Below are positions 1 through 40,900 of a stretch of DNA of 64,000 nucleotides, in pieces. The notes under the pieces were generated by a model. That model was not told the DNA's origin. It worked only from the letters and a program-made list of their open reading frames with translations, and did no database searches. Every line of letters starts with the position of its first letter. The first letter of the stretch is position 1. The stretch is from IMG/VR virus record IMGVR_UViG_3300020349_000003; one strand, written 5' to 3'. The translations under genes were made by a program, and so were the position numbers. This stretch comes from a virus. Lineage: Duplodnaviria; Caudoviricetes.

Positions 1-200
1 TATATTATATTATTATGAATATTAAGATTCTTCCCATCCCATATATCAACATGCCTAGACTTAATAAAATGCTTACCAGTGTATAGGTCAGCAGTTAAGT
101 TAACATCTCTTTTATTTTTCCATGTTGTATGGTTACTTTCAAAAACCATATCAGGGAATGTATCTAATACAGCTCCCTTATATCCATCCCACAAACTCAT
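1..200 (-). CDS. pebS: Phycoerythrobilin synthase (ferredoxin-dependent bilin reductase), 5' part; runs off the window
   Basis: Not in the ORF track. Hand translation from ATG at 200: MSLWDGYKGAVLDTFPDMVFESNHTTWKNKRDVNLTADLYTGKHFIKSRHVDIWDGKNLNIHNNIIY. This matches the phage PebS N-terminal pattern I recall (W..Y..A...TFP, LTA...TG.HF.K.R, I.N.I.YP). ATGA overlap with the upstream stop. Confidence 0.8.
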   Translation of the reverse strand, partial: MSLWDGYKGAVLDTFPDMVFESNHTTWKNKRDVNLTADLYTGKHFIKSRHVDIWDGKNLNIHNNII

Positions 201-2326
201 GCTATTTGCTCCACAAATTTGTTTAAGATAGTTTTGTTGGTCATTTTTGAACCCATATGTTTTTTGAATGCACGAGTTAGTTCTGCTCTAGTTGCTTCTT
301 CACCCTTCTGTTTAACTTCAAGGTCTTGAGTTCCATCACCCATGCCCTGAGAAGGTATGAAGTATGCTTCAGTATAACCTAAAAGTGTAGAAGATGCAAA
401 CTTTTCTTTAGACCATTGCTTCTCCATATTTTCTGCATCACTGAAATCAAGGATACGTGTAGATCTCTTGAGTTCATTTTTGGTACAGATACGAATACCA
501 ACCCAGTTATAATCTGTAATTTCTTTAAAGAAACTAACTATTTCTTTGGATACTAGATATGGACTTGGTTTAAACTCACGAGTATAACCAGTCACACTAT
601 CTCTTAAGATATACTTTTTATTCATACGCATCTGTCTTGAATGAAGACCATTATCATAGTAACCAGAACTATCATCATGGTAGTGCATTTGATTTGCTTC
701 ACCATCAGTCAAACAAACTACATTTATTTTTTGTACCTTTTCAACTTTTCTCATTTGCTCAACAAGTATTCTTGAACACATTACAGCTTCACCAAGAGGA
801 GTACCACCAAGAGTATACTTCTCAACATAAGGTAACCTATGACCGTTCATAGCAAACGCTTGCATATAAACTAACTTCATAGAATTTTCTAAAGACTGCT
901 TATTCTGTTGTGATGAGAAGAACTCTAGAAGTTTAAATCCACTAGTGAATCCAAAAACATTTTTAACTGGTTCTACTGCTGGATGTAAGTTTCCACTTTC
1001 CCATCCATTTTGGAATCCGTAAACCCTAAATGGAATACCTGCTTTCCTACAGAACCATACTAAATTGAAAGTCTGTTTAAGAGTATCCAATAGTATATGG
1101 TTCATAGATCCAGACCAATCAAGGAAGAATACCAATCCGTGATTCTTACCCTCTGGAATTACTGTAACTCTTCTAAAGATATCATCACTCAATCTATACT
1201 TGTATAGAGACTTGGTATCGATAACACCAGTCTTAGATGTTGCTGCTCTCTTATACTCATCAGCAGACTTCTTCATCTCAAACTGCTTTACAAGATAGTT
1301 AACACTACGCTGTGCTTCTTTCTTATATGATTTGAAATGATTCTCAGCATACTCAACGTTATTAAAGTAATAATCGTGGTCACCTTTATCACGACATGCT
1401 CTTCCATAGAATCCTAAATTCAATTCATTCTGAATTGTTTTACAATCTATAAGAACTTTATCAATATCAATCTTAGGTAGATTCAAATAAACATATTCCC
1501 TTTCATCATCACTAACTAAAGTCTCTAATGATTCCTGCAATGCTTTGTCTGTAACACTCTGAGTCTCATCAACACTACCATCAGTTCCACCAGTTATATC
1601 ATCCTCATACATAGCATCTTCTAATTCATCAAGTTGCTGTTCAATTGACTTTTGAGTTTTTGGACTTTCCGATTCTCCTTCACCTTGTCCGTCTTCTTCA
1701 GAATCGATATCAACTTCTTGCTCCATCTCGTTACCAGCAGTAGGATTGTCCCAATCAATATCTATTTGTTCAGGTATCTGTGCTGCTTTCTGGTCTTCTT
1801 TACCTTGTGCCCAATCATATAACTCTCTAGAAAGTTGTAAGACATCATCAAAAGTCTTTGTAGTTGCTACTCTATCAACCCACACTTGCTCATCTTCATT
1901 AAATTCTATTGTATTATTGCCTTTGAAAAATAGATTGATGCGGTCAATAAAAGCAAGGTTATCTATTTCCTCATCACCCACACCGAAGAAATCCTTATGC
2001 CATAGTTCTCTATACCCATCATAGAATGACCGTCTAAGACCTGGATAAGTATGCTTCATCATACGTTCTATACGTGCGTCCTCTACAACGTTCACAAACC
2101 CTTTAGGAGCGTCTATAGGGATGTTAGGAGTGTATAGAGCATGTCCTACTTCATGCCCAACTAGAAGGTCATAAACTGTGTTAGAAGCATCAGTCCATAT
2201 AGGTAAGGTCAAGACACGATTATTAACATCAAACGAGGCTGTCTGTACTTGACGATGCTCAACGGTAAGATCTTCTGTTGCTAGTAGTTTAGCAAGGGTT
2301 CCTTTTACTTCGGTGTTAACTGGCAT
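197..2326 (-). CDS. Zincin-like peptidase + VWA domain protein (CobT-like, conserved in T4-like cyanophages)
   Basis: HEVGH (HEXXH) near the N-terminus, NVVEDARIE, an acidic linker, and VWA MIDAS motifs LDWSGSM, GGTP and LTDG. Confidence 0.8.
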   Translation of the reverse strand: MPVNTEVKGTLAKLLATEDLTVEHRQVQTASFDVNNRVLTLPIWTDASNTVYDLLVGHEVGHALYTPNIPIDAPKGFVNVVEDARIERMMKHTYPGLRRSFYDGYRELWHKDFFGVGDEEIDNLAFIDRINLFFKGNNTIEFNEDEQVWVDRVATTKTFDDVLQLSRELYDWAQGKEDQKAAQIPEQIDIDWDNPTAGNEMEQEVDIDSEEDGQGEGESESPKTQKSIEQQLDELEDAMYEDDITGGTDGSVDETQSVTDKALQESLETLVSDDEREYVYLNLPKIDIDKVLIDCKTIQNELNLGFYGRACRDKGDHDYYFNNVEYAENHFKSYKKEAQRSVNYLVKQFEMKKSADEYKRAATSKTGVIDTKSLYKYRLSDDIFRRVTVIPEGKNHGLVFFLDWSGSMNHILLDTLKQTFNLVWFCRKAGIPFRVYGFQNGWESGNLHPAVEPVKNVFGFTSGFKLLEFFSSQQNKQSLENSMKLVYMQAFAMNGHRLPYVEKYTLGGTPLGEAVMCSRILVEQMRKVEKVQKINVVCLTDGEANQMHYHDDSSGYYDNGLHSRQMRMNKKYILRDSVTGYTREFKPSPYLVSKEIVSFFKEITDYNWVGIRICTKNELKRSTRILDFSDAENMEKQWSKEKFASSTLLGYTEAYFIPSQGMGDGTQDLEVKQKGEEATRAELTRAFKKHMGSKMTNKTILNKFVEQIA

Positions 2327-16938: not shown

Positions 16939-17535
16939 CTAGGAGTTTTTAACAATTGGAGTCCAGTACTGAGTCTGGAGTTCAACTGTAAACTCTTCAA
17001 CCGCATCATTGTTACCGAAGTCTAGGTCTATTGCAGCAATAGAACTTGGGAATACGTTGTAGAACTTATAAGATTTAAGAATGTTTGGATTGTCATCAGT
17101 CTTGATATCACGTGATAACTGGTGAACTTCCATGTCAGCGAAGTATCCAACTGCATCATCAGTATCATTAAGAGCATTACCTGACTCAGTGGTCGAAGTA
17201 TAGTTCTCGTTATATGCTTGTATTGCTGCTGCCCATGTTTCAAATGCTGTTCTTAGTAAGAACTTACTATCATTCTGAATAGTAATTGTCCAAGGTTCAA
17301 AGGTTCTGTCTCCAGCGATCTTTAGAACACGTCCTCTAAAAGGTACTTCAATAACACCGATTTGTGATGCTGGTAGGTTTGCTGCACGAATTGTAAAAGC
17401 TCCTAGCTTTGCTAGTTCTGCTGAACCTGTTATTATCCCTGTCGGGAATGCCAAGTCAACTTGGAATAGATTAGGTCTTGCGAAATCCGATGTAACAGCC
17501 GCCTTAAAACTGTCAAGTGATCCTCTGCTTGCCAT
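16939..17535 (-). CDS. g19: Tail tube protein gp19
   Basis: ARPNLFQV, PFRGRVLKIAGDRTFEPWTIT and EEFTVEL; CTAAATA upstream at 17577-17583. Confidence 0.97.
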   Translation of the reverse strand: MASRGSLDSFKAAVTSDFARPNLFQVDLAFPTGIITGSAELAKLGAFTIRAANLPASQIGVIEVPFRGRVLKIAGDRTFEPWTITIQNDSKFLLRTAFETWAAAIQAYNENYTSTTESGNALNDTDDAVGYFADMEVHQLSRDIKTDDNPNILKSYKFYNVFPSSIAAIDLDFGNNDAVEEFTVELQTQYWTPIVKNS

Positions 17536-17605
17536 GATAGTAAAATTCCTTGGTGGTTATTAAATCCTGTCCCTTATATTTAGTATAATGAATATTTTTA
17601 GACAT

Positions 17606-17633
17606 AAAAATAGCGGAGATAACTCCGCTATTT
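17606..17633 (-). terminator. Rho-independent terminator after g18
   Basis: Stem AAATAGCGGAG/CTCCGCTATTT with a 4-nt loop and a U-tract on the minus strand. Confidence 0.85.
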
Positions 17634-17653
17634 AAAATATATTTAACTGTTAT

Positions 17654-19906
17654 TTACTGAGCAACTTCAGAGAATGCAACACCAGTACGTGTAGCAACGA
17701 AGGTTAGAGTAATGTAGTTAATTGTACGTGTAGGTTTCACGAAGACTTCTGCGTAGAACTCTCCACGATCTATAGCTTCTGGTGGGTTGTTGTCACCATC
17801 ACACTTAACTAAGAAATCAGTTACACCACGACGACCTTGTACGTCACGTAGATATGGTTCGATGATGTTCAAGAACAATGCTCTTTGTGACTCATCGTTT
17901 TGCTCAAAGAGTTGTGCCTTAGCAGCACCACTTACTACACGTTCGATTGTAAGGAATAAACGACGAACGTTTATTCTATCGAATGCGGAAGCATATGATA
18001 GAGCAGTCTTATCACCATAAAGAACTACACCCTGACCTGGGAAGGCAACTATTGGGTTAATTCTATTTGCGTATAATGTATCACGCTGAGTCTTATTAGG
18101 TGTATATGCAAGTTTAATTGCATTTCTTAGAACACCACGTTGGAATCCAGCAGGTGAGAACCAAGGTTCTGCAGTCTCAGTTGTTTGTAAACATAGACCA
18201 GCAACGTCACCATTACAAGGAATGTAACGATAAAGATCATTATACTTGTCATAGATGTACTTGTATCCAGCATCAAATACACAGTAAGAAGAACTTGGAA
18301 GAAGTTTAAAGAATGCCTCTACGTTCTCTGTCTGTGTGGAAGCAGAACTTACACCAACAAGATTTGCTCTACGAGGAGAAACAAATACTAGGCAGTCACG
18401 ACGTTCTTCAACAATGGATACTAGAGCAGTAATCTTAGCTTTAGCAGTTCCATCATCAACACCTGAAGGACCAGTAAGAATGTAATCAATTGTCTGTTAC
18501 TCTGGGTCAGCAATTAACTGATATGCACTCTCAACATCTGTACTTGATACACTGTACTCACCACTAGCAACAGTGTAGTTAACACCATCTGCTATACGAT
18601 AGTAGAATGTTGCGTTGTTCTTAGAACCAATTGTGAAAGCACCACCTGGGAAATCAGTTGTACCAGCACTAGAGCGTAGTAAGTTAAACTGACGTGAAGC
18701 ACCAGACAATCCCCAGTTACCATCAGATGCAGTACCTGTTGCAGAGAACAGTCCAGTCTCATGATTACCCCAATAAACAAATTCTGAACGTTGCTTAATT
18801 ACTGTCTTATAGTAGTTGGTTTCACCAACAGAAGTCTTAGCATCAGATGCTTTAGACATTCCAACGAAACGCTCAAGAACAGCACCAGCAGTTCCAGTTA
18901 GACCACCGTCAACATCAACTACAACAACATGTAGTTCGTCACGGAATCCACCTTGACCAGCAACTGATTGTGAAGTTCCAGGACGTGCAGCAACGTTAAT
19001 CCACTTAACACCAGGAAGATACTCACGCTCGTTATACTCAACACGAACTGAAGTAACAGTTACGTTAGTAGAGTTTGTGTCAGCAACAACATCAGAAGCA
19101 GCAAAATCAACGCTGTCCTTATTGAGTGCTATGTATAGTTGACGCTCAATACCACCTGTTCCAATAACAGCAGTATTTGTTCCTGCAGTAACTGTCTGAC
19201 CATCAGCGATGATACCAGTAACTCCACCACCAGGAAGACCTATTTCTAATTTCTTATTGTTTGAATCCCAAGCAAGAACTGTAACAGTTTCTTGTGAACC
19301 ACCAATATTAATTGTAGTAGTAGCACCAGGAGTAAATGAACCAACAACACTTCCAACTGTTAGAAGTATGCTGTACTTAAATACTTTACCACTAGCACCT
19401 GACGTTGCACTTAAAGCAGCATCAGCAACAAACTCATGCTCGTTACCTGAACCAGGAGCTGGGAGAACAGCAATCTGATCTGCACCAGAGTCTGTTACAA
19501 ATATACCAATCGAGTTACCTTTATGTCCAGGAGTTCTAGCTGACCAATTCCAGTTGTTGTTTGAATCTTCATAACTTGCTTCATAACCATCTAGGTTCTT
19601 GATTAAAGGAGCAGTACCACCATTAACACCGTTCTTTAATGCTGTTGAACCAACTCTAATAGCTTTTAATATACCACCATAAGATAGGAACTGCGAAGCA
19701 GTATACCAATACTCATAGTTAGCATCATTTGGTTTACCGAACTTCTCTACAAGATCTCTCTCAGAAGTTACTGTTACGACTTCCTCAACAGGTCCGAGTT
19801 CAAACGGTGCAGCTATGACACCCAAGTTCGCTGTCGATAAGCTGGTTATAGTGGTCAGGTCTCTCTCCTGAACTACTACACCTGGCGATAATTGATTTGC
19901 TGCCAT
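17654..19906 (-). CDS. g18: Tail sheath protein gp18 (750 codons), interrupted by one in-frame TAA at 18497-18499
   Basis: N-terminal SPGVVVQERDLT. After ADPE* the same frame continues QTIDYILTG...RRDCLVFVSP...PWFSPAG.QRG...GDKT...FDRINVRRLF...FVATRTGVAFSEV to the stop at 17654. Confidence 0.95.
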
Positions 19907-25049: not shown

Positions 25050-26081
25050 TCAAATTGCCTCATCATTACCACTAATAGGATTGCGTTTCTTCTGATCTGT
25101 GTATTCAGAGTATATCTCACCAAATCCAAAGTCATCACTTGAATCTAGTAGTGCTGCATCATCTTCATCTATCTTCAGAATACCTGCACCATTTGCATGT
25201 CCAACAATAGATGAACCATTCCATCCTCTACCAACATGTAATGTACTACCAACGATTCTATTGATATGCATAACCTCAGTACCAATCTGAATATCATCTC
25301 CTTGTACAAAGGATGATACACTAGCAACAGATATAATTCCATCGTTAACATCCATTGCAGCAGTAAGAGTAGTAACTCCTACTCCATCCTGATCTGTCAA
25401 TGCAGTAGGAGTAACAGTGTATCTCTTCTCTCTTGGTGCTGATGTTGTATTGGTGGTACTGTAAGTATCTGTAATAGCCTTCTTGATAACCTTGGAATCT
25501 GTAATAGGTCCGTATAGGTATGTCTTTGCAGTAAATGTTAGAGTGTATATAATTGCTCTACGATTTGCAAAATCTCCTTCGTAATCATCCTCATAATCTA
25601 TGTTCTGTAAAACTATAGGAACATCTTTAGTTTCTCCTATTGTGGTTTGAAGTTTAACTGAGAGATTATAATGAGGTTGAAAGTACGGAAGAATCTGTTC
25701 AATGATTTGTAATCCGTCATCTTGGTTCTTTGATATAATTGCCAATTCAAATCCAATATTATAAGGCACAGGCATAAAAGCATTTTTGTTTTCATCTGTG
25801 TCTTTTTTAAATTTAATTTTTTGTGTAGGTGATACCTTTCTGGTAGCATCGTAACCTATACTATTAATCTCAAAAGATAATCTAGGAAGTGTTATTTGCA
25901 CCCTCTTATTAGTAGGGTCTGGATTTTGATCTAACCTTGCTAAAAATTTCTGTTTCGGACCATATGCCAAAGGCACTTTCATCACTTCATCAGAACGACG
26001 AATTTCAATATTGTTAAACAATGTTCCGAAAGCCACGATAGTCTTACGAAAGATTTCATTGTATGAATAAGTTCCTAACAT
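25050..26081 (-). CDS. g15: Tail sheath stabiliser / completion protein gp15
   Basis: AFGTLFNNI, VPLAYGPKQKF, LPRLSFE, QIIEQILPYFQP and YLYGP; extra C-terminal module. Confidence 0.95.
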   Translation of the reverse strand: MLGTYSYNEIFRKTIVAFGTLFNNIEIRRSDEVMKVPLAYGPKQKFLARLDQNPDPTNKRVQITLPRLSFEINSIGYDATRKVSPTQKIKFKKDTDENKNAFMPVPYNIGFELAIISKNQDDGLQIIEQILPYFQPHYNLSVKLQTTIGETKDVPIVLQNIDYEDDYEGDFANRRAIIYTLTFTAKTYLYGPITDSKVIKKAITDTYSTTNTTSAPREKRYTVTPTALTDQDGVGVTTLTAAMDVNDGIISVASVSSFVQGDDIQIGTEVMHINRIVGSTLHVGRGWNGSSIVGHANGAGILKIDEDDAALLDSSDDFGFGEIYSEYTDQKKRNPISGNDEAI

Positions 26082-27007
26082 TAGATTGATACATCAGTTG
26101 AGCTTCCGACTGTTCCGAATGGATTTGATTCGGAGAAGTCTATAATATCATTATCAGCAGTCTCAAACTCATTATTTTGATCGTACTCGATATTTTTATT
26201 ATCTATTGTATTATATGTAGCCGTTGTCCAAGAAGCACCCGATGAACCACCTGTAATTGTTTCTGGAACAGTAAACGTCCCAGATCTATTAATAACAATA
26301 AGTGTTCTAGTACCAGAATCCCAAGACTTAACTTCAGCAGTTACATTAGAACTACCTCCAGTTACAGTTTCACCAACTGTAAAGTCTCCTGTACCACCAG
26401 CAACTAAACCAACTGTAATGGCATTAGCAAAGGCAGTCTCTACAGCATCTAGTTCTGCAAGACCAGTATCAATCTCCTCATCGCTGTACTCGAAGAGTTC
26501 GCACTGACATTCCCAAACATATCCTTTACCTAACTGATAGAAAGGACGTTCGACTTCTACAAACTTAATTTCAAATAGATGTCTAGTTATAGGGAACCAA
26601 ATTAAATCCCCTTCGTTGGGTCTTCCTTCGACATTGAGTACAGTCGAGTCATCAACCTTTTCTTTAAATTTTTCACGGGAGAATATAAACGTTGTCTTAT
26701 CCTCGATGCGGATTCCAAACTTCGTAAGAAGCTCGCCTTGTCCTTCCCATCCTTCAACATTATTGACATAGGCTCGAATCGCTTTGGCACTTTCAAATTT
26801 GCCATCAGAGTCCTCTCCGAAGACGTTATCACGGTTGACAATAGTTCTCGGCACGTAGTAAATATCTTGCCCGTAAATTTCAATGCTCTCTACAACTAGG
26901 TTTTCCATGAACTTCTGCTCTTGAGCAGAACCGTTAATCTTTAATCTTCCAGCATTACTATAGTCCGACTGAACGTAATCTTGTGCTGGTGTATTGGAAT
27001 ATGTCAT
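26081..27007 (-). CDS. g14: Neck protein gp14
   Basis: ESIEIYGQD.YY.PR, RPNEGDLIWFP, PFYQLGK and DFSESNPFG. Confidence 0.95.
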   Translation of the reverse strand: MTYSNTPAQDYVQSDYSNAGRLKINGSAQEQKFMENLVVESIEIYGQDIYYVPRTIVNRDNVFGEDSDGKFESAKAIRAYVNNVEGWEGQGELLTKFGIRIEDKTTFIFSREKFKEKVDDSTVLNVEGRPNEGDLIWFPITRHLFEIKFVEVERPFYQLGKGYVWECQCELFEYSDEEIDTGLAELDAVETAFANAITVGLVAGGTGDFTVGETVTGGSSNVTAEVKSWDSGTRTLIVINRSGTFTVPETITGGSSGASWTTATYNTIDNKNIEYDQNNEFETADNDIIDFSESNPFGTVGSSTDVSI

Positions 27008-27821: not shown

Positions 27822-30800
27822 TTAAGCGAATGATTGGATAGTCAAGTTAGTAACATCATTAGCACCAACGGTTTCTCCCTTCTTGAAGAATCCATCAACA
27901 TTATCAACGGTAACTGAAGTAGCACCTAGAGCAGTGATAACTCCTGTTGAACCTGAAGTACCACCTGTAACGGTTGCACCCACTTCCATCGTTGCGATGT
28001 CAGATAGTGTGAAGGTTGCATTAACAAATACTGCAGCAGTGTTCAATGAAGAACCATTACCGTGGATGGCTGATACTGGAATTGTGCAACTGTTACCATG
28101 TATAGCAGATACAGAAGTCTGTGCATCACCATTACCACCTACAATAGTTATAACTTCGGAGTTTGCATAACCAGAACCATCAGTGTTAACTGCAACAGCA
28201 GTAACATTTCCACTTGCATCAGCAGTGATGTTAAGTGTCAATCCTGTACCAGAACCAGATGAGGTTGTAGCAACGTTGTTGAATGTACCCTCAGTATATC
28301 CAGTACCAGCAGCACTGATAGAACCAAGAGTATTAACTCCAGTTGCATTTGCATTAACAATAGTAACTGTATCAGAAGCAGCATAACCAGTACCATCATC
28401 ATTAACTGTTACTCCAGTTACAGCACCGTTACCATCAACTGTGATATCCACTGTTGCAGATGTATTAGAACCTGCTGTTGCAATTCCACTTCCAGCAGAA
28501 TAACCTGTACCAGCAGTAGCAATAGAACCAAGAGTCTTAATACCAGTTGCGTTAGCATTAGTAATGGTTAATGTCTCACCAATAGCATATCCAGAACCAG
28601 CATTATTAACAGAGACGTTAATGATTGCCCCACCAGATGCTGTGATGTTAAGTGTAGCACCTGTTCCTGAACCAGATGATGATGTAGCAACACCAGTTGC
28701 TGTAGTGTATCCAGTACCACCAGCCAATGTACCCAAGTTAAGAGCAGAAACACCACCTAGATTTGGGTTGGTTATTGTTAGTGTGTCAGAAATTAAGTAG
28801 TCACTACCAGCAGCATTAAGTGCAAGACCTGTAATAGCACCGTTTCCATCAACAGTAGTATTAACAGTTAATCCAGAACCAGTACCACCAGAGGTTGCTA
28901 CTCCAGTTGCATTAGAGAATCCTCCAAGACCACTAGCAGTAATAGAACCAATAGTTGTAACAGAACCTGGTGTTGGGTCTCCAGATAGATTCAGTACTAA
29001 TGTAGTTGAAGTTGCAAGGTTGTTAAGCATTGCACTAAGTTGTTCAAAAGCATTATCAAGTTTTGCCTGTACTCTTGCCTCTGTGTAGTAAAGGTTTGTA
29101 CCTTCTGCAAGAGCAGCAGTATTATGATTATTAAGGTTAGTTGCCTGTGTTGCAGAAGCAGCATTACCTGAAGTATCTTGGTTACCTCCTGTATTAACAC
29201 CTGGAAGACTGATTGATGCAGTACCATCAAATGCAACTCCACCAATGTTGACTGAAGCAGCCAAGGCAGTAGCAGTAGCAGCATTACCAGATGTATTCTG
29301 AGTACCAGCAATGTTAACACCAGCAAGATCTATATTTGCCGAACCATCGAATGCAACACCACCGATTGTCTTAGATGAATAGAATTTTGTTGCTGTATCA
29401 GCATTACCAATAAATGCACCACCAAAACTAGGTGCAGTAACTCTTCCGTTATCAGCATTAAAGGTGAGAGTAGATCTACTCTTAACTCCTAGATTACCAG
29501 TTGCAGATGTTGCAAACAGTATGTTGCAAGTTGTATCTGTCTGCTCATCAGCAACTGTAACTGTTGTTGCTATGTCTGCTGTACCTGTAAGGTCTCCAGT
29601 AATAGCAGTTATGTTTGCAGCATCTGCATATATTCCTTGCCATCTAACTGAAGTAGTACCTAAATCGTATGTACTATCAGCAGCAGGATTTAAATCTTTA
29701 GTAGTAGAAGTTGTAGCAACTAAGTTACCTGTAACATCTCCTGTGAGTGATGCTGTAATTACATTAGCAGCAAAGTCACCTGAACCGTCACGTAGGACAA
29801 GGTTGTTTGATGCGTTAGTGGACGCTGAAGCGACGTTAATCGTTGTATCACCTGATACACCATCAGCATTGGTAAGAGTGATTCCAGACGATGCTGTCGC
29901 CTGTAGGGTACGTTGAGCATATGTACCAGTACCTGTTCTTACAACATAACCTGTTCCAGACTGTGCAGCAAGAGCAGTGATATCACTATCAACGAATGTT
30001 GTTGTAATACTTACATCAGCAGAACCGTCAAACGATACTGTACCAGAAACAACACCAGCAACTGCTACGTTACGTGCAGTTTTAAATGCATCAGCAGAAG
30101 TTGCGTTACCTAAGAATCCAGCACCAGCACCAGCAGCACTAGCAGCAGTAATTTGATTAGCAGCAAAGTCTCCAGATCCATCACGATTAACAACTGTAGA
30201 TGCTGTATTAGCACTTGCAGTTGTCATATTATCTAAACGGTCAACGTTTAGGTTATTGACTTTTGTTGTAGATGTAATAACAAATGGAGCAGTACCATCA
30301 GCAACTTGGAAAGTACCTTGACCATCTACTGTTAGAGTACCGTCAATGTTTACATTGTTATCTACATCAAGGGCAGTACCAGCACCAGTAAGATTTAAAG
30401 AACCAGCTCTAAGAGCACCGTCTGTACCAGCGTGTACTTCAGAATTATTTGTTGCGTCTGTTAAGAATGCGAACTGGTTTGATGAGTTATCAAATCCAAA
30501 GAAACCAATCTTAGCAGAACTATCATAATAGCGGAACTCAACACCACGATCTTTAGCATCATCACTTGAAGGTGCAGTGTCTCCACCAAGAGTTATGATA
30601 GGGTCATCTAGAGTTGTTACTGTAGAATTGACAGTAGTAGTTGAACCATTAACTATTAGGTTACCACCAACAGTAAGGTCATTATGGAATACTCCATCAC
30701 CACTACTATTAGTTACCTTAAATGCATTTCTTCCATTACCTGAATCGTAAACTGTAAAGTCTCCACCAATCCAAGTCTTCTTCTGAACAGTTAAACCACC

Positions 30801-33800
30801 TTGAGATTTGAGAGCACAAGATGAAGAATTTAATGCAGCAGCATCCTGAGTACTACTAATATTTGTTATACCAGCAATATCAGCATCACCATTAAAATCA
30901 CAATTCTGAGTTACTATAAGATCTGTATAACATCTTACATCACCACCAAAAGCAGTTTGCTTAGTAACACCAAGACCACCATCAAGTCTTACAGCACCAT
31001 CCATGCTGAAGGAACCTGATATGTCTTGTTGTGTAGTGTTATCAAAGTTTGATACTGGGTCAACAGTAAATGAAGTACCGACTCCAAGTCCACCACTACA
31101 AGATGTATTTCCTGTTAACGTTGCATTCTTGTCATTCATATTGACATAGAATGCCATATTTCCACTTGTATCATTAACTTGGAAATAGTCGTTAGTTAGA
31201 TTACCACCAATTAATACACGACCTATAAACTCTGTAGTAGTTCTATGACCTACAGAACCTACAGTCAAGTCTCTCATTATGGTAGTGTCACCATAATCAT
31301 AATCAACAGTAAAGCAATCTGAACCAAAACCATTCTTGATTTTGAATATCTTATTGTTATCTTGGAACGTTACATCATCACCAAAGGTTGCTGCACCATC
31401 AACATTAAGTGTAGTATCGAAGTCAGCAGCCAACTTAGTATTAAGTGTACCTTCAATAACTGTGTTACCACTAGTAGAAGCAACAGTAAACTTATCAGTA
31501 GTACCAGTACGAACAGCAAAGTCTGCATCAACATCAAGAGTACCATTAATTTCTGTATTACCAGCAACGTCAAGTGTACCTTGAATATCTGTATTACCTG
31601 TAGCACCTAAAACACTAAACTTAACTGTGTCTCCAGATGCTTTCTTACCAACGAATAGACCTTCACCAGATCCAGTACCACCAACATGTAGTGTTGTATT
31701 AACACCAGCACCACCATAGACTCTTAAGTTAGAAGTGTTATGGTTTGAGTAACTTGGAGTATATGCACCAACAGAACCAGTACGAAGTTTGTATCTGACA
31801 GATAGGTAGTTCCTTAAACCGTAGTTCTCAGTTGCGTCTTCTTGCTGGTTAAAGTCACCGTTAAGATATAAGTCACCATTAAAGAGAACATCCTTATCAA
31901 AGTATCCACCACCATCTACTCTCAATGCACCATAATCAGCAGACCCAATTGTATGTGGAGCACCAGATACGATATTAGGATTGTCTGTAGATTCAAGATG
32001 AACTAGGTCAGCAACATTTAATTTACCTTCACTGTTAGTATCACCATTATCTGTATCAACTGTAAACTTATCTACTCCAGCAGCAGTTTGAATCTTGAAG
32101 AACTTACCATCTGCTTTAATAGTAGTAGCATCAGATACATCTAAAGTACCAGCAATAGCAGTGTTACCAGATGCTGCTACAACATTAAACTTGTTAGAAT
32201 TAATATTAAGGTTGTTAGTTATATCAACAACACCATAGAATGATGCATTACCAGTTGTTGATTGTAGTTCTACTCTAGTAGTTCCACTACCATTGTTTAA
32301 TTGAAGTGTCTTAGATGCACCTTGAATAGTAAGACTGTCATTAAAACGACCTGTACCATGAGTAACAAAGTTTGTATCTATATCTACCGAACCACCGATA
32401 TTAACATCATCACCTATACCAGCACCACCTGCTACTACTAAGTCTCCAGTAGTATTTGAGGTTGAGTTAGTATTAGTTGTTAGACTTAAGTTACCAGCGA
32501 TGATCCCTGCATCTGTTCCAGCGAATACTTCGGAGGTATTTGTGGCATCGTAGAGGAATGTAAACGCTCCTGAATGTCCTCCAAGATCGTTGGCTGAATC
32601 GTCGTAACCAAAGAATCCAACCTTTGCCGAAGCGTCGTAATATCTGAATTCAACTCCCCTATCTTTACTGTCATCTGACGCTGGAGCAGTATCACCACCA
32701 AGAGTGATAATAGGATCATCCAACGTAGTAACTGTTGAATTAACTGTTGTAGTCGTTCCATCTACTTGTAAGTTTCCTCGTATAGTTACCAGTCCAGTAA
32801 TATCTCTATCATCATTAGGGTCAATTAATATATCACCAGTACCACCCAAATAATTAGCTTGGAACCTTAAGTCCTCTACATGAACTTTACCATTAGCATC
32901 ATTAGCAGAAATAGTAACTTTATCTTCTGCACCAATGATTACATGACTTTCACCAGAACCTAAGTTAGTTGCAAAAATACTTACTGTTCTATTAGATGCA
33001 GAACTTTGTGTGGACTGTATAGTTAAATTACCATCACCAGTCTTGTCTATAGTTTGTGCAACCGTCCCATCAAGGGTAATGTCAGGATCTGAAATGTAAG
33101 TTCTTACATTGATATCAACCTCTCCAGCACTACTGTCACCAGTATTATTAGCACCGAATAAAAGATTCCCTGAAGTATCGTTAACTTTAACATAGTTTAA
33201 ATAATTGAAACCTCTATAACCAGTTGTTGCTGTGAGTTCTTGATCTAAATCAAAGTTCTCTACTGCATTTCCATCAGCAAAACCGATACGTTTATTTTGT
33301 AATTGACTATTGTCAACAGAATTGGCAGCAATAGTAACATGACCTGTTGCTGCAACATCAAAATCTTCTTGTGCAAATGATGCGAGTCCTTTCTGCTTTG
33401 TATTAACAGCAGCTAAGTATCTCCAAGATCCAGCATCAGTAGCATCAGTGTGTGTAGGTGCTGCTTCTCCAGCAGCAATTCCTAATATTGCTTGATAGAG
33501 ATTACCACCATTAGTAATTTTATCATCACGAACATAGACAGTAGCAGCATTATATGCTAGTGCTTCAGTTCCTTCTACTGCTGTAGCAATAGGAGCATCA
33601 GCAGATGCTGTTAATCTACCATAATCATCAACCGTATAAGTGGTTGTGTTAACTGTTTGTGAACCAGCTACTGAGGTAAGTGATGCTGTATTATAATCAG
33701 CAGGAGTTACGGCAGTAGTTATTAAATCAATTGTTGGGTTTCCACTTATACCACTACCATCTGTAATAGCGATTCTTGAAGTACTACCCTGAAGAGTTCT

Positions 33801-34412
33801 AGTTGCCATCACATTGGCAGAAGTTCTAGCAATCAATCCAGTTGTAGTAATTCCAGCAACTGCAGCAAGATCACCATCATAAGGCATAGCAGAAGAACCT
33901 TCTACTGTACCATCTAGACCATATGCAGCAAGAGTTGTTGGTGTTGAAGCATTTGAAACTCTACCTTTAGCATCTACAGTTACCTTAGTATAAGTTCCTG
34001 TAGATGTTGATGTACCGTCATAATGAGGTAGAGTTGTAACTAATTCTAATGATGTTACTAAGTTTAAGTTAGAAGAACCATCAAAGACACCAGATCCTTG
34101 AACATCATCTGAAAGTTGAATTTGACGAGTTGAAGCAAGTCTTGTAGCAGTTGAAGCATTACCAATTAGAGTTGATGTAATTGTTGCTGCAGCGAAATTT
34201 CCGTCTGCGTCTCTTTGTACTAACGTATTTGCGGTATTGGATGTTGATTCAACTGGTCTCTCATATCTCAAAGAGTTCCATGCTGAAACACCATCACCAA
34301 TTTTAAATCGGCCAGTGTCTAATTCTATCCCTAATTCACCTTGTGCCAATGTAGGGTTTGAGTTTGCCCATTCCTGAGCACCACCTCGTCTTAACTGTAT
34401 TCTATTTGCCAT
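27822..34412 (-). CDS. Long tail fibre protein (2,196 aa)
   Basis: Mtd-N-like start RIQLRRG...W...NP.LA.GE.G.E.DT..FKIGDG...W..L.Y, trimeric beta-type repeats, an internal duplication and G-rich C-terminal modules. Confidence 0.88.
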   Translation of the reverse strand: MANRIQLRRGGAQEWANSNPTLAQGELGIELDTGRFKIGDGVSAWNSLRYERPVESTSNTANTLVQRDADGNFAAATITSTLIGNASTATRLASTRQIQLSDDVQGSGVFDGSSNLNLVTSLELVTTLPHYDGTSTSTGTYTKVTVDAKGRVSNASTPTTLAAYGLDGTVEGSSAMPYDGDLAAVAGITTTGLIARTSANVMATRTLQGSTSRIAITDGSGISGNPTIDLITTAVTPADYNTASLTSVAGSQTVNTTTYTVDDYGRLTASADAPIATAVEGTEALAYNAATVYVRDDKITNGGNLYQAILGIAAGEAAPTHTDATDAGSWRYLAAVNTKQKGLASFAQEDFDVAATGHVTIAANSVDNSQLQNKRIGFADGNAVENFDLDQELTATTGYRGFNYLNYVKVNDTSGNLLFGANNTGDSSAGEVDINVRTYISDPDITLDGTVAQTIDKTGDGNLTIQSTQSSASNRTVSIFATNLGSGESHVIIGAEDKVTISANDANGKVHVEDLRFQANYLGGTGDILIDPNDDRDITGLVTIRGNLQVDGTTTTVNSTVTTLDDPIITLGGDTAPASDDSKDRGVEFRYYDASAKVGFFGYDDSANDLGGHSGAFTFLYDATNTSEVFAGTDAGIIAGNLSLTTNTNSTSNTTGDLVVAGGAGIGDDVNIGGSVDIDTNFVTHGTGRFNDSLTIQGASKTLQLNNGSGTTRVELQSTTGNASFYGVVDITNNLNINSNKFNVVAASGNTAIAGTLDVSDATTIKADGKFFKIQTAAGVDKFTVDTDNGDTNSEGKLNVADLVHLESTDNPNIVSGAPHTIGSADYGALRVDGGGYFDKDVLFNGDLYLNGDFNQQEDATENYGLRNYLSVRYKLRTGSVGAYTPSYSNHNTSNLRVYGGAGVNTTLHVGGTGSGEGLFVGKKASGDTVKFSVLGATGNTDIQGTLDVAGNTEINGTLDVDADFAVRTGTTDKFTVASTSGNTVIEGTLNTKLAADFDTTLNVDGAATFGDDVTFQDNNKIFKIKNGFGSDCFTVDYDYGDTTIMRDLTVGSVGHRTTTEFIGRVLIGGNLTNDYFQVNDTSGNMAFYVNMNDKNATLTGNTSCSGGLGVGTSFTVDPVSNFDNTTQQDISGSFSMDGAVRLDGGLGVTKQTAFGGDVRCYTDLIVTQNCDFNGDADIAGITNISSTQDAAALNSSSCALKSQGGLTVQKKTWIGGDFTVYDSGNGRNAFKVTNSSGDGVFHNDLTVGGNLIVNGSTTTVNSTVTTLDDPIITLGGDTAPSSDDAKDRGVEFRYYDSSAKIGFFGFDNSSNQFAFLTDATNNSEVHAGTDGALRAGSLNLTGAGTALDVDNNVNIDGTLTVDGQGTFQVADGTAPFVITSTTKVNNLNVDRLDNMTTASANTASTVVNRDGSGDFAANQITAASAAGAGAGFLGNATSADAFKTARNVAVAGVVSGTVSFDGSADVSITTTFVDSDITALAAQSGTGYVVRTGTGTYAQRTLQATASSGITLTNADGVSGDTTINVASASTNASNNLVLRDGSGDFAANVITASLTGDVTGNLVATTSTTKDLNPAADSTYDLGTTSVRWQGIYADAANITAITGDLTGTADIATTVTVADEQTDTTCNILFATSATGNLGVKSRSTLTFNADNGRVTAPSFGGAFIGNADTATKFYSSKTIGGVAFDGSANIDLAGVNIAGTQNTSGNAATATALAASVNIGGVAFDGTASISLPGVNTGGNQDTSGNAASATQATNLNNHNTAALAEGTNLYYTEARVQAKLDNAFEQLSAMLNNLATSTTLVLNLSGDPTPGSVTTIGSITASGLGGFSNATGVATSGGTGSGLTVNTTVDGNGAITGLALNAAGSDYLISDTLTITNPNLGGVSALNLGTLAGGTGYTTATGVATSSSGSGTGATLNITASGGAIINVSVNNAGSGYAIGETLTITNANATGIKTLGSIATAGTGYSAGSGIATAGSNTSATVDITVDGNGAVTGVTVNDDGTGYAASDTVTIVNANATGVNTLGSISAAGTGYTEGTFNNVATTSSGSGTGLTLNITADASGNVTAVAVNTDGSGYANSEVITIVGGNGDAQTSVSAIHGNSCTIPVSAIHGNGSSLNTAAVFVNATFTLSDIATMEVGATVTGGTSGSTGVITALGATSVTVDNVDGFFKKGETVGANDVTNLTIQSFA
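27990..28967 (-). repeat. Four ~70-aa GTGY/GSGY beta modules, nested
   Basis: Four G.GY...AT..GSG.T...G.GY...TIT units followed by four short closing strands. Confidence 0.7.
30390..32775 (-). repeat. Duplicated ~90-aa fibre module (copies at ~32490-32775 and ~30390-30663)
   Basis: TTTVNSTVTTLDDPIITLGGDTAP.SDD.KDRGVEFRYYD.SAK.GFFG occurs twice. Confidence 0.9.
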
Positions 34413-34723: not shown

Positions 34724-34947
34724 TTTTTGTCTTGGACTAACGTTAGTAAAAGTGTTTTTATTTCACTCATTTCTGATTTTAACTCAGAAACCTCATTTTG
34801 TAAAGCTATCTGCTCACCCTTTTCCCTCTGATCAGCATAATAAGTTTTCATATACTTATCATAAGCATGCTTATCAGTAGACTCAATACATCCAGAGGTG
34901 GTGTCTTTCCACCACCCATCTTTATCTTTAATAGGTAAGTACCCCAT
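34720..34947 (-). CDS. Small conserved protein downstream of vrlC
   Basis: KD..SG.I...D...Y..Y and a C-terminal coiled coil LKSEMSEIKTLL. Confidence 0.75.
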   Translation of the reverse strand: MGYLPIKDKDGWWKDTTSGCIESTDKHAYDKYMKTYYADQREKGEQIALQNEVSELKSEMSEIKTLLLTLVQDKK

Positions 34948-37900
34948 TATACAGCAAGAGCGATTGCTCTTAGATCCATTATCTTAGGTATGCTAGCTTG
35001 GTTTTGAGATACAAACAATATCTTAATTTGATACTGTGTAAAGTCTAATCCACTCATTTCATAAGCGTAATCCCTATAAACTTCCTCATCGGTAGTTGCT
35101 GGAATTACTGAATCACCACCAGTAGGGAAGAATTCCCATCCTAGAGTCTCTATGTTATCAGTTGAACCTGCAGGTAGCACTCTATATAGAGGCTTGATAT
35201 GTGTATCAGGTGGTCGGGTAGCACTAAACATTAGTTTAATAGCACCAGAAGGATTTGAAAGAGTAGCAATTCTAGTAATATAAACCGCTTCATGTTCGTC
35301 ACCAACTGGTAACAAAGCAGAATTTATATTAGATGGACTGTTAATTCTATTAGATGTTAGAATTACAGACATCCTATCTGTATCAATTATAGGTGATACA
35401 TTTTCTTTCTCACTCTTAAGTGTTAGATCTAGTCGGAATGACTTAGAACCTGATAACTCAGCAGATTCATTAATCTGTGAACAAATCAATTGTGGAGCTA
35501 AGAACTCATTATAGTCATTCAATACTACATCAAAGAACTCACCTGTATTCGAGAATGAATTCTGTGCTAATGAAACACCATCGTTAATAGATGTTCCACT
35601 AATAGTATTAACCGTACCATCTATTGAAGTCTTAGGTAGTATTAGTTTTTGAACTTGTGGTGTCAAAACTTCATACTGAATATTCTGAGATGCCTCAATA
35701 GAATTACCACCAGACTTAATACCCAACTTAGCAATTGAAGTTGTTGTCAATTCATAAGAATCTAATGATGGTGCCATAATAGCAACATGAGTTTTATTCA
35801 ATTCTGTCAATGGTATACCATCTAGATTATAACACTCTACTACACTATCATCAGTATGAGTAACAGCAGTAGTTCCATCTACACCTCTTTCATAAGCAGT
35901 AATAGTTTTACCATCACCACTAACAGCAGAGTATGATATAATCTCATCGTCTATCTTAACATAACCAACGTTTGCTGTTCCAACAGTACCACCATTAATG
36001 GTTGTGTGGAATGCAGTACCATCATTAACCTGAATACTTGTATCAGCAGCAGATATAGATGATGTTAAGTATGTTGTAGATACTTCAGAAGTAATACCAG
36101 TAAGAGTTACATTGTTATCATTGTCATGCATTCCATGATTTGAATGGAATACTTTAATTCTTCTTTGTGAACTTGTATATGTTGGAGATGTTGAAGGATA
36201 TGCATCACTAACAGCACCTGTCTCAATTACGTCACCACTATAAGTTATGGCATTAACTGTTGCAGTTACAGATGATGTACCACCTGTGATAGTTTCAGTA
36301 GATGCTGTATAGTCAGTAGAAACATATTTTAAAGTTAGTGTGTTACTTCCTGGAGTCCAAGTAACAACTTCAGCAGTAGGAGTTGTTGCAGAGTTACCAG
36401 TAATTGTTTCACCAACAGTAAAGTCACCAGATGCACCTGTTACCGTCATAGTAGCAAGTGTCTTAGATGAAACTAATCTATTAGAAATAACACCACCAGT
36501 GTTAGACCCAGAAGACCATGATCCTGAGATATCATTAATTGTTAAAAGTACACCTCCAGCACTAGAAGCAACTGTCTTAATAGTACCTTCTGCTAATGTT
36601 GTCTTTTGATAAACACGAGCACCAGCACTAAATGGTAATGTAGTTGAGTTCATCACCAACTGCAATTCAGGTTGGAATGTTTGAATTCCATCAGGTTGTA
36701 ATATAATCTTACCTCTATTACCTCTATCCAATGGAGCATTATTTAAAGTAACTCTAGAAGCAACAGATGTATCAAATACTGCTCTGTTAACAATGAACTT
36801 CATATCTTCGTATTGGTCAGCAGTCCACGTTGTTGCGTTCTGTGACTTGAATAGAACACCAGCATAAGGCTGTTCAGATATAGTTCTGTCTCCAGTAATA
36901 TCCAATTCACCCATTCTAGAAATCCAAACTTTATATGTATTAGAATCTGAGAATAGAACAAAACAATGTTCTTGAGATTGAGGAATATAAACTGGAGCTC
37001 TAAATGTAAATCTAGTTGCAACAGCACCTGTCTCAGAGATCTGTACTTGTTCTGGAGTTAGTGTTGTATCAGAGAAAGGAAGAATCGTAGTTGTGGGATA
37101 TCCATTCTCCATAGTTCTAACTTGCATAGAGATAGGAATATTAACATCCTTAGTAGCAAAGTAGATATCAACTGAAGTGATAAATGTACCACCTTCTTCA
37201 TCAACCAAGAATGATTGTGCTAGTGGATCCCACCAACCAACCTGACGAGTCTCATCCCTAATAGTTGTAGTAATACTCTGACTTTGAGTTTGAGTATCTT
37301 GAGTAACCTCTGCATTTCTAATAGAGAGAATAACTTCTTGAACTGTATTCAAAGAACCAGTTGCCCTGTATTCTACTTGTGCGGCAGAATCTACAGTTCC
37401 TGGAAGTCTAGAATCATTTTCATTAGTGGTAAATCTTAATAGCCTTGTACCAGTAGACCAACGAGGGTTGGTATTAATACCAGCATCAGGTATAAACAAT
37501 GACGCTCTATACTGCCCTCTTCTATCAGAAATACATCTACGGTCTTTAACAACTGCTCTAGCACCTGAAGCACCTTGTAGCACTTCTCCAACTTGAACGT
37601 TACCAAAGTATTCACCTACAGCTTGAGCAGCAAGAGAAGTGGTATTGATGTTAATAAAGTTAGTTGTTGAAGCATATGATGATGGAAGTTCCGTATCATC
37701 ATAAGGATTATATGTGAAGTAATCATTAGGTGCAGCAACTTGTAACTTACATCCACTAGTTAAACCAGTTACAGTTTCACCTTCAACAAATGGTGTAGAG
37801 TTTGTTCTAGAGTCGGTAGTAGAATCCTTAATAACCTCAATAATCTTAGGTGTTAAATAAGCATCAACCCTCTGTCCATCAAAGAATGCGAAGAATGATG

Positions 37901-40900
37901 TTCTAGGCTTCATACGAACAACATTACAATCAATGTTCCTAGAACGAATCCAAGGAATAGATGTAGATGAAAGAACTGAATCACCAGCACTAACTCTATC
38001 AATTCTTGGAACAACTCTTGTTCTGATACCAGATCTAGTTTGATTAGTTACAGATTCGACACGTATGCCTTCCATAACAGCACGACCCCAACCACCTGGC
38101 ATTCTGTTAGGTTGTCCTGAATTCCAACGTCCTGTTCTTGTTGTCTGTTCTCCAGTCCAAGTAGTCTGCCAACTACCCCATTGTGTTGGAGCAAAACCAT
38201 TTTGGTCAACGTTAAAGCTAGCAGCAGTGGCCTCAAAATCACCTTCTAAGTTCTGTATATTTTGTGGAACTCTGTTTGTTTCAACCCAATCATCAGATGC
38301 TGGAGTTAAATCAACACGTCCAATATAAGCAAAGACGTTAAATGGGTTTACATTCTCAACTCTTGAAGCATATGGTTGTATAATTAATGCTTCCTCTTCA
38401 TAAGGTAATGTTATGATAGGACCAGTCTTCCTATAGTTCTGAGATAATGAGTCATTAACAATCAAAGAAACGTTTGTTGTATAGTGAGAAGGACGGCAAA
38501 GACCATATGTAAAGTCTAAAGAAGCAGCCCAGTCTTGTGACTTAGTAAGAGACTTAGAATGATCTGTAAAGTCATCTACAATGAATCCATTCTTTAAACG
38601 GTTCTTACCAGAGGCATCAGTTATCTCAACGTTGAATGTATCAGTCTCTAACATATTAAGAGAAGTATAATACTCAACACTACCAAGGCGTTTTTCTATA
38701 GCCCCAATATCTCTCATAGTAAATCTCTTATTATCAGACTTGATAATAGTTACATCATCAGCAGGTTCAAATCCATAAGGCTTGTGTCTTAAGACTGCTA
38801 ATTGCATACCATCTTGTAAACCTTCTGGCTCAAGAGGAATCTCTGCAGACTTACCTTTAATTATCTGGAATTCGCCATTAGGTAGTATATAAATTTTATC
38901 AATCCTTCTTAGATACCAATCAATATCACACTTAAAGTTACTATTAATTTTCGGTATATCAAATAAGGTAGCAGATGGTGTACCCGAAGTTGGGAATACT
39001 CTTGACTTAAAGTCAAATGTAGAACAGTTTACGAATGCTGGAGAAGAAACTGTTCCTGTTCCTGTATAAAGATTCTTACATCCTGGACGGAAGTCTAAGT
39101 AATCTGCTAAGAACTTATCTCCATATATTGTTACATCCTTATAATCTGTATTCAAATAAGACTGTCCACCAAAGTAATCTCCAGTAGCAGAATGACTATA
39201 ATAATCTAATACAATTTTTAATTTTCTAATTGGAACTGCAAAACCCTTTCTTCTTACTAACTTAGAAGGTCCATAGAAGAAATCAGTTTGACCATTCTCT
39301 AACACATAACGGTCTGTAATTACCTTTGAACCTTCAATGATAGATCCAACAGCATCGTTAATAATACCACTAATAGCAAGATTGTTGCTATCAATACCTT
39401 CAACTGTTTCACCAGATACAAAATTACCATCAAGATATATGATAGTTAATTTTAAAGTACTTGTATTAAAGTCAACAACCATTGCTCTTGCTTTGGATGT
39501 CTTACCTGTAACTACAGTACCAGTAGCAAAGAAAGTTGGTTCAACTAATGTAATAGATGGAACTATAGGATCATTCTCATCTAAAGATTCGTATATTGCA
39601 TGAATCTTATATCCATCCATTAACCCAAGAGAAAGTTCTCTATCTTCAATTCTTGTACCATAAAGGTTTGAATATGTTAATCCATAATTCAACTTATCTT
39701 TGTTAGAGATAGTCTTATTGACTTTCATAACAAACATCTGTTGTGCTGCTTTTGTCTTTCTAGCAGTCACGTTCTTAGAAACAGTTGCTGTTACTTTAAT
39801 AGATGTAATGTTTGTTAGGTTATCAATCTGGATAGTTGTTTTATCAGCAGAAGTAAATGATGTATATCCTAAAGCACCAGAGTTTGCTGTATCAATTGGA
39901 AGTTGATCACCAATAGGATGAGTACCATTAGTACCACCCATTACTGTTAATGTATAATTCTCATTAGTAATTGCTTCAAACTGTTCATTCTCTGGAAGAG
40001 TAATTGATACTGAATCAGACGCAACAGTCTGAGCATCAAATGTTCTTCTACAAACCATTGATTCATCAGAGATACTCTTAATGTATGGCTTAGGCATTTG
40101 ACTCAATAGAGATGAATCTAGAGTCTCATTCAGTTTAGATCTATAACGAATTAGAGTTGTATATGTACCTGCACTAGGATAGTTAGAACCTGGAGGTGTT
40201 ACATTAACTGTTTGTGCTGAGTAATCAAAAATAGTTAATGTATTACCAGAACCTAAAGCTGCTGGTGTAATGAAATCAACAGTAACATATTGTGTTGCAG
40301 AGAAGTATATTCTATCTCCTGGTCTTAGGTCAGCAGCAAAGTTTGATTGTAAACCTGTAATCTTTTCAGAACCACCAGTAGCATCATAAGTGAATGTTGC
40401 ACCCTGAACAATCTTAACATCTTCTAATCTTAGATCTGTTGTAAATTCTATTGCTTGAGTATTCTCATCTCTAGAAACTAATTGTCTTGAATCAGAGTAT
40501 TGATATACATGTGTATTACTAATTGTATCTAACAATTCACCATCAAGAAGTAATGATTCTCCTTTTTGGAAAGTACCTTCTACTTGATACAATTGTAAAT
40601 GAGCACTAGTAGTAGAAGCAATAATGTACCCTTTAGCACCTGTAGTTAAACCAGTAACTATAGAACCTTGAGGAACAGTTTTAGATGAACCTATTTGAAC
40701 TACAGTGATCATCTGTATATCAAATAGATTTAACTTATATCTATCGTCAGCATCACCAAATGTACTATTAGGATCGGTTACAAATTCACATGAAGAAATT
40801 CTAGCATAACCAATTATATTACCTTGAGCATCACCAGGAGTTGCTGTAAATTCGTCATGCAATTCTACAGTTTGGTATGCATTACTAATAGTAGAACCAG

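Follow-up and report, generated by a model that had tools for sequence, protein, structure and literature searches.

Our analysis indicates that the last 380 residues of a cyanophage fibre protein are likely to form a hairpin-shaped rod of four nested six-stranded beta-barrels, with the strands that complete them closing in reverse order. Sequence comparison shows the repeat anatomy, the equal numbers of modules and closing strands, indels shaped like brackets and a correspondence of tip type with first-strand type, and the barrels are predicted by a fold model. The fibre gene is a single ORF of 2196 aa on the minus strand (27822-34412, translation by coordinates) of the window, that is, the whole stretch of 64,000 nucleotides of viral DNA that was analyzed. 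The protein matches PHROG 697 (E = 0, 2677 bits) and falls in T4-like gene cluster 402, with homologs annotated in S-TIM4, S-SSM5 and P-SSM7, and blastn of the gene returns P-RSM4 together with these three phages. The neck genes gp13 and gp14 lie directly downstream, an order also found in S-TIM4, S-SSM5 and P-SSM7, and the full-length homology together with this conserved place upstream of gp13/gp14 establishes membership of PHROG 697/cluster 402. The phage carrying the gene is a marine T4-like cyanomyovirus.

The databases name this family “YadA domain-containing structural protein” (e.g., S-TIM4 ORF108). The sole Pfam match in the fibre protein at E ≤ 1 is Mtd_N (PF18454), at residues 5-43, and no YadA head, stalk or anchor model was matched in the same scan, so that the “YadA” label lacks Pfam backing in this protein. 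T4 has wac and gene 12 at the corresponding gene position, and because the fibre gene occupies that position, we leave the identity of the fibre within the particle undecided. Mass spectrometry detected the S-TIM4 ortholog, ORF108, in virions, and it carried mutations in every population that underwent experimental adaptation to hosts (PMC6224464), which makes a role of the protein in host recognition plausible, with nothing linking this possible role to the nested block itself. Intragenic recombination between repeated segments has been described for the same ortholog (Enav et al. 2018). The fibre gene studied here contains a 36-bp unit in 1.9 copies at 85% identity (window 31529-31598), and a link between that repeat and the recombination is not established.

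The C-terminal block, read from the translation, starts after a predicted helix, EARVQAKLDNAFEQLSAMLNNLAT (29010-29081; this and all following features of the fibre gene are on the minus strand), which is probably the last coiled-coil segment ahead of the block (AlphaFold2 (AF2) DSSP helix at model residues 7-30, mean pairwise identity among homologs 0.93). A conserved entry segment, LVLNLSGDPTP (28968-29000), at the putative base of the rod, is followed by four Gly-rich modules of about 70 aa (28128-28967), four strands of 10-12 aa (27990-28127) and a 55-aa end domain. Module 1, in our model the body of the outermost barrel, has 69 aa and ends in LTITNPN (28761-28967; HMM i-E 2e-29); module 2 has 70 aa and ends in LTITNAN (28551-28760; 3.9e-24); module 3 has 68 aa and ends in VTIVNAN (28347-28550; 3.4e-28); and module 4, putatively the innermost and of the type that we call tip A, has 73 aa and ends in ITIVGGNG, the predicted far-end hairpin turn (28128-28346; 7.5e-27). 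The closing strands follow without interruption: strand 1, DAQTSVSAIHGN (28092-28127), strand 2, SCTIPVSAIHGN (28056-28091), strand 3, GSSLNTAAVFVN (28020-28055), and strand 4, ATFTLSDIAT (27990-28019), which has the residue pattern of the other closing strands. The end domain, of the MEVGATVTGGTSG... type, begins at MEVGATVTGG and runs to the stop codon (27825-27989; mean pairwise identity 0.89). The original prediction, which had listed four G-rich modules with the ends TITNPN, TITNAN, TIVNAN and ITIVGGNG and then four short strands, held in every item when translated by coordinates.

The four modules are mutually homologous, as an HMM built from nine modules matches each of them with i-E values from 4e-24 to 2e-29. 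Tandem Repeats Finder detected no DNA-level repeat at the four-module block; the module copies are thus old and diverged beyond the reach of this program. Mean pairwise identity among homologs falls from 0.89-0.93 at the base to 0.72 in module 1 and 0.64 in module 4, and such a conserved base with a variable tip fits a constant socket carrying a variable business end.

Related sequences occur in neighboring proteins. The end-domain type “VGxTVTGxTSG...GxFxxGE” is also present at the C terminus of the neck protein gp14 (window 26081-27007, minus strand) and several times in a 2392-aa neighbor belonging to PHROG 358 (34947-42125, minus strand), for instance at residues 483-525 and 856-918. The G-rich module is also found, once, in a 510-aa homolog of the T4 baseplate wedge protein gp8 (42130-43662, minus strand; PDB 1N7Z, E 4e-8 over residues 33-206), where it occupies roughly residues 215-300 (VINAAGTGY...GGTGYTFGKISVDNITG...QVDVIIPP). 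The use of this copy as an un-nested control was dropped, because it aligns only weakly to the HMM (E 4e-4) and the alignment stops short of a closing strand.

We then compared the numbers of modules and strands across homologs. Scanning IMG/VR with the last 425 residues of the fibre gave 80 loci, 78 of which carry both anchors and represent 58 distinct sequences. Modules were counted by HMM, and strands were counted independently by a regular expression applied in the reverse direction, starting at the end domain; this expression was relaxed to include two strand variants, as a narrower form left 24 and 12 residues over, after which mismatches were zero. The results show that module number equals strand number in 78/78 loci, the 58 unique sequences being distributed over the classes 3:3 (1 sequence), 4:4 (27), 5:5 (16), 6:6 (12) and 7:7 (2). 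The isolated phages S-SSM5, P-SSM7 and S-TIM4 have 2:2, 3:3 and 4:4, respectively, and five additional unique metagenomic loci have 2:2. Altogether, the counts are equal in all 66 of 66 distinct homologous C-termini, from n = 2 to n = 7, without exception, and the co-variation anticipated by the original prediction therefore held. Block lengths are stepwise (161-168, 250-252, 326-335, 402-419, 488-501 and 578-579 aa for two to seven levels), with a step of about one module plus one strand. The layout is thus beyond chance, as its matched numbers recur in every homolog examined. DNA-pattern scans of IMG/VR found no form with zero or one module between LSGDPTPG and MEVG; they gave only chance ATGGA matches in two-module homologs and one unrelated high-GC contig.

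Natural length differences between homologs are bracket-shaped, of the form M1[M2[ ]s]s, unlike beads added to a string. In an alignment of the three isolated phages, P-SSM7 differs from S-SSM5 by one contiguous insert, made of a divergent module of a second type, tip B, and its own strand LTFDATAIHGN, which lies between the body of module 2 and GxTVNIATVATN, the strand that directly follows module 2 in S-SSM5. S-TIM4 differs from P-SSM7 by a two-part insert, of which about 70 aa precede the tip unit and 12 aa follow it; a nest, to which a module and its strand are added apart, would explain such split length differences. Where alignment margins are clear among the closest pairs of n and n + 1 levels, the positions of the added module (i) and the added strand (j) obey i + j = n + 1. 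These clear cases are few and derive from about two independent events. Exceptions to the rule are confined to pairs with margins near zero, a result of the near-identity of several strands.

A rival reading takes the modules as ordinary tandem repeats and the four short strands as a small beta domain of their own, without any pairing of strands with modules. Repeat arrays are read in this way by default, and neither Tandem Repeats Finder nor Pfam shows anything unusual in the block. However, it cannot explain the matched counts in 66/66 C-termini with n = 2 to 7, the bracket-shaped indels or the nested ranges of the fold model described below, and we consider it to be practically ruled out.

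The innermost module exists in two types, and its type matches that of the first strand in 58/58 sequences with n = 3 to 7. Tip type A reads ...GTGYTEGT...ITI.GG.G and is paired with DA.I/TPVSAIHGN, and tip type B is a divergent 80-aa form, ...GN.GAADA.RT.GTY...DAQLGGGGGA, paired with LTFDVTAIHGN. The homologs L038 and L041 differ mainly by the contiguous tip unit, which, together with the agreement of tip and strand types, leads us to infer that this unit behaves as an exchangeable cassette. Both tip types are present in fibres of differing depth, as though swapped as cassettes; examples of such units are the innermost modules of L067, L029, L041, L045, L056, L059 and others, as well as those of P-SSM7 and S-TIM4.

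We next consider the fold, which was predicted with AF2 using the last 425 residues and 27 four-module homologs as input (model numbering runs from this fragment). The best model has a mean pLDDT of 72, with values of 80-94 over residues 130-360 and of 88-94 in module 4. Only this one of the five models is confident, the other four having mean pLDDT values of 36-54. The prediction for a five-module homolog (L047, 16-sequence alignment) had a mean pLDDT of 39.5 and was unusable as a replicate, so that the structural support rests on one model. In the confident model, DSSP assigns five strands to each module and one strand of 8-9 residues to each closing segment (model residues 326-333, 337-345 and 350-357 for strands 1, 2 and 3, respectively). 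VIA-align matched the model to single barrels of about 75 residues, namely T4 gp18 domain I and EF-Tu-type domains (Z 3.4-4.7), over ranges that span 253..332-334 (e.g., 253..334), corresponding to module 4 plus strand 1; 184..344-348 (e.g., 184..347), corresponding to module 3 plus strand 2; and 115..355-357 (e.g., 115..357, with 355/357 as the ends listed for module 2), corresponding to module 2 plus strand 3. The range 184-347 comprises 164 residues, and subtracting the 85-residue inner unit leaves 79, the aligned lengths in VIA-align being 72-79.

Because these ranges and the residue arithmetic fit, strands 1, 2 and 3 are predicted to be the sixth strands of barrels 4, 3 and 2, completing the modules in reverse order in the model. 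It should be noted that this assignment was made from the first and last aligned residues and the aligned lengths, not from coordinates. Barrel 1 with strand 4 (pLDDT about 48 for the strand) and the end domain (pLDDT < 50) are of low confidence, and ATFTLSDIAT is given to barrel 1 by count and sequence pattern only. The proposal of an out-and-back telescoped stalk, which had been made together with the statement that it would fail if the four short strands folded as a separate domain or if their number did not track that of the modules, is thus supported by the counts, the indels and the fold model: a separate domain is not seen in the confident model, neither outcome was met, and in that model the expected completion in reverse order held for modules 4, 3 and 2, with module 1 and strand 4 at low confidence.

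The fold family of the barrel cannot be named, because all Z-scores are below 5. Domain I of gp18 aligns with module 4 plus strand 1 over 72 residues at an rmsd of 3.0 and 15-18% identity (3fo8_D, Z 4.6; 3foa_A, Z 4.5), matches that tie with EF-Tu-type barrels and lie below the level that VIA calls informative (weak, Z < 5). Foldseek against the PDB returned nothing at E ≤ 0.001, and against BFVD its hits were homologous pieces of cyanophage fibres, with poor global TM-scores and without contact information. A PDB sequence search found no solved relative.

An alternative that would also bring the C terminus back is a length-matched return spine, in which the modules are complete beads and the 12-aa strands only run back along the rod, one per module for reasons of geometry, bringing the C-terminal domain to the base; in a variant of this idea, the strands might make a central three-chain beta structure in a trimer. 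The return spine likewise predicts equal counts and two-part indels, and a fixed position in the strands that holds His, Phe or Trp would be in keeping with a buried axis. Moreover, a trimeric fibre is probable, and a model of a single chain, as used here, cannot reveal strand swapping between chains. Against it, each strand belongs to a barrel in the confident model, as aligned against complete solved barrels, the modules have only five strands of their own, and strand type tracks module type, both at the tip (58/58) and in the Ser/Thr-His rule given below. We therefore regard the return spine as unlikely.

To compare registers of pairing, we used covariation between modules and strands. Within groups of equal n, the module-by-strand mutual information is saturated by shared ancestry and assigns no partners. 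Pooled over all units, it is highest for mirror pairing (0.95 vs. 0.67 for parallel pairing). By this pooled measure, the mirror register is ahead of the parallel and +1 registers, whereas its lead over the -1 register is not clear, the latter scoring as high as the mirror when only interior units are considered. In addition, a Ser or Thr at module residue 2 pairs with a strand His in 78/78 cases under the mirror order, and the concordance of this rule is 92% under the mirror order vs. 26-61% under other registers. As the rule is post hoc, having been picked from mirror-order data, it is only supporting evidence.

These data bear on a third alternative, a shifted register in which ATFTLSDIAT is part of the C-terminal domain, the tip module is self-contained and strand k closes module n-k rather than n+1-k. 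In its favor, PSITLVEPTF in an uninterrupted copy of the end domain, from the 2392-aa neighbor, aligns with ATFTLSDIAT (a weak alternative alignment), pooled covariation does not separate the mirror from the -1 register, and strand 4 has a low pLDDT. In contrast, module 4 goes with strand 1 and module 3 with strand 2 in the VIA ranges, ATFTLSDIAT shares the residue pattern of the other closing strands, and a near-identical module 2 would have to be self-contained in S-SSM5 yet strand-dependent in P-SSM7. A shifted register thus appears highly improbable, and we retain the mirror register, with reverse-order completion of barrels 4, 3 and 2 as predicted by the model.

A related question is whether the whole block is itself inserted in a VGATVTGG-type module, as the original prediction had it. 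The flanks, LVLNLSGDPTP and MEVGATVTGG, were confirmed, and the insertion is without structural evidence, the region having a pLDDT < 50. By inference, LVLNLSGDPT may supply the end domain with its first strand, in which case the block as a whole would add a further level of insertion; in the uninterrupted end-domain copy of the 2392-aa neighbor, the preceding strand aligns with ATFTLSDIAT and not with LVLNLSGDPT. The further claim that recursive insertion is a general design rule for the virion proteins of this phage is a generalization from two cases in the phage and is weaker than the claim of a telescoped stalk.

Based on the nested-barrel model, we propose that the outbound chain would leave the last coiled-coil segment and lay down five strands each of barrels 1, 2, 3 and 4, all of them open, before turning at GGNGD. 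The returning chain would then complete barrel 4 with a sixth strand, followed by barrels 3, 2 and 1 in turn, each barrel being inserted in the last loop of the preceding one, which can be written M1[M2[M3[M4 s1]s2]s3]s4. The chain would end in the conserved 55-aa domain back at the base of the rod, together with LVLNLSGDPTP and adjoining the coiled coil. Every barrel-barrel joint would be crossed by two chain segments, and the rod should therefore be stiffer than a row of beads joined by single linkers. In space, the far tip would be the innermost unit in sequence and the most variable part, rod length would change in whole steps as a module and its strand are gained or lost, and folding would have to finish from inside out, the inner barrel first. 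The tip unit, a module with its own strand that is contiguous in sequence, may act as an exchangeable cassette, a property that would fit a host-recognition role of the fibre, receptor binding being inferred.

By analogy, the closest known counterparts of this nest are the Si3 arm of cyanobacterial RNA polymerase and the T4 sheath protein gp18. Si3 is an insertion in the trigger loop of the beta' subunit (RpoC2) in which SBHM-2 to -5 are discontinuous (PMC10895346), and it was described as a six-level recursive insertion in a 2026 survey (PMC13114784). Both Si3 and the fibre as modelled have copies of one small beta domain inserted in each other, domains built from distant chain segments and an elongated arm. 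Two hallmarks of Si3 can be examined in the fibre: homology of the nested units is shown, as one HMM matches all four modules, and discontinuous outer domains completed in mirror order are supported by the VIA ranges, the indels and the 66/66 counts, at the level of one confident model and without an experimental structure. Si3 differs in being made of the sandwich-barrel hybrid motif (SBHM), in forming a branched nest and in lying within an enzyme, whereas the fibre has a strictly linear nest in a virion fibre, with the insertion always in the last loop, a single 12-aa closing strand and a depth that varies from 2 to 7 among close relatives. No homology of the fibre modules to SBHM was detected with Pfam or VIA-align, in that there was no Pfam match and no SBHM entry in the 50 listed VIA rows (all Z < 5), which does not exclude an unlisted family.

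In gp18 (PDB 3FO8, 3FOA), domain I lies in domain II, which lies in III, which lies in IV, these domains having different folds and a fixed number (PMC3004832). Like the fibre as modelled, gp18 is a phage structural protein with a Russian-doll topology, and its domain I ranks with the best structural matches of module 4 plus strand 1; homology between the two is not shown, given the 15-18% identity and Z < 5. In contrast to gp18, with its four unlike folds in fixed number, the fibre nests one domain in copies of itself, and their number is variable. In the phage analyzed here, the ORF list shows separate ORFs (18497-19906 and downstream) in window 16939-19906 on the minus strand, a region annotated as tail sheath gp18, and this split is consistent with an in-frame stop noted there.

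The tip of the T4 long tail fibre protein gp37 (PDB 2XGF; Bartual et al. 2010) is reported to be an intertwined trimeric needle with iron ions on HxH motifs. It resembles our model in the out-and-back topology of a receptor-binding fibre, in which receptor binding falls to a middle part of the sequence, the spatial tip being formed elsewhere than at the chain end. However, it is an iron-held, intertwined needle without a series of discrete barrels, and a PDB sequence search found no sequence similarity to gp37. No description of a nested-barrel fibre was found in the literature searched. One-level insertion of a domain in another domain is common; to our knowledge, deep insertion of a domain into its own copies is not known beyond the Si3 arm.

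If the nested-barrel model is correct, the same principle would shape the terminal part of a fibre on the virions of abundant ocean viruses, and it would do so by a clean rule, with one insertion site and one closing strand per level. The fibre would then have to be read anew, with the spatial tip, a possible site of receptor contact, in the middle of the sequence and the C terminus back at the base. From the model follow testable predictions on host-range variation, on the order of folding, in which the inner barrel would come first, and on rod stiffness. A bolder reading, against which we lean slightly on present evidence, is that of a length-adjustable, evolvable receptor-binding rod, in which levels would be gained solely as whole “module + strand” cassettes inserted at the innermost hairpin, and tips A and B would be exchanged, likewise as cassettes, among fibres of unequal depth. 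Were this reading true, it would amount to a way of evolving fibres that has not been reported in any phage, the rod would offer a natural template for designing stiff protein rods to a desired length, and cyanophages would tune both their reach and their host specificity by a balanced-bracket grammar within a single gene.
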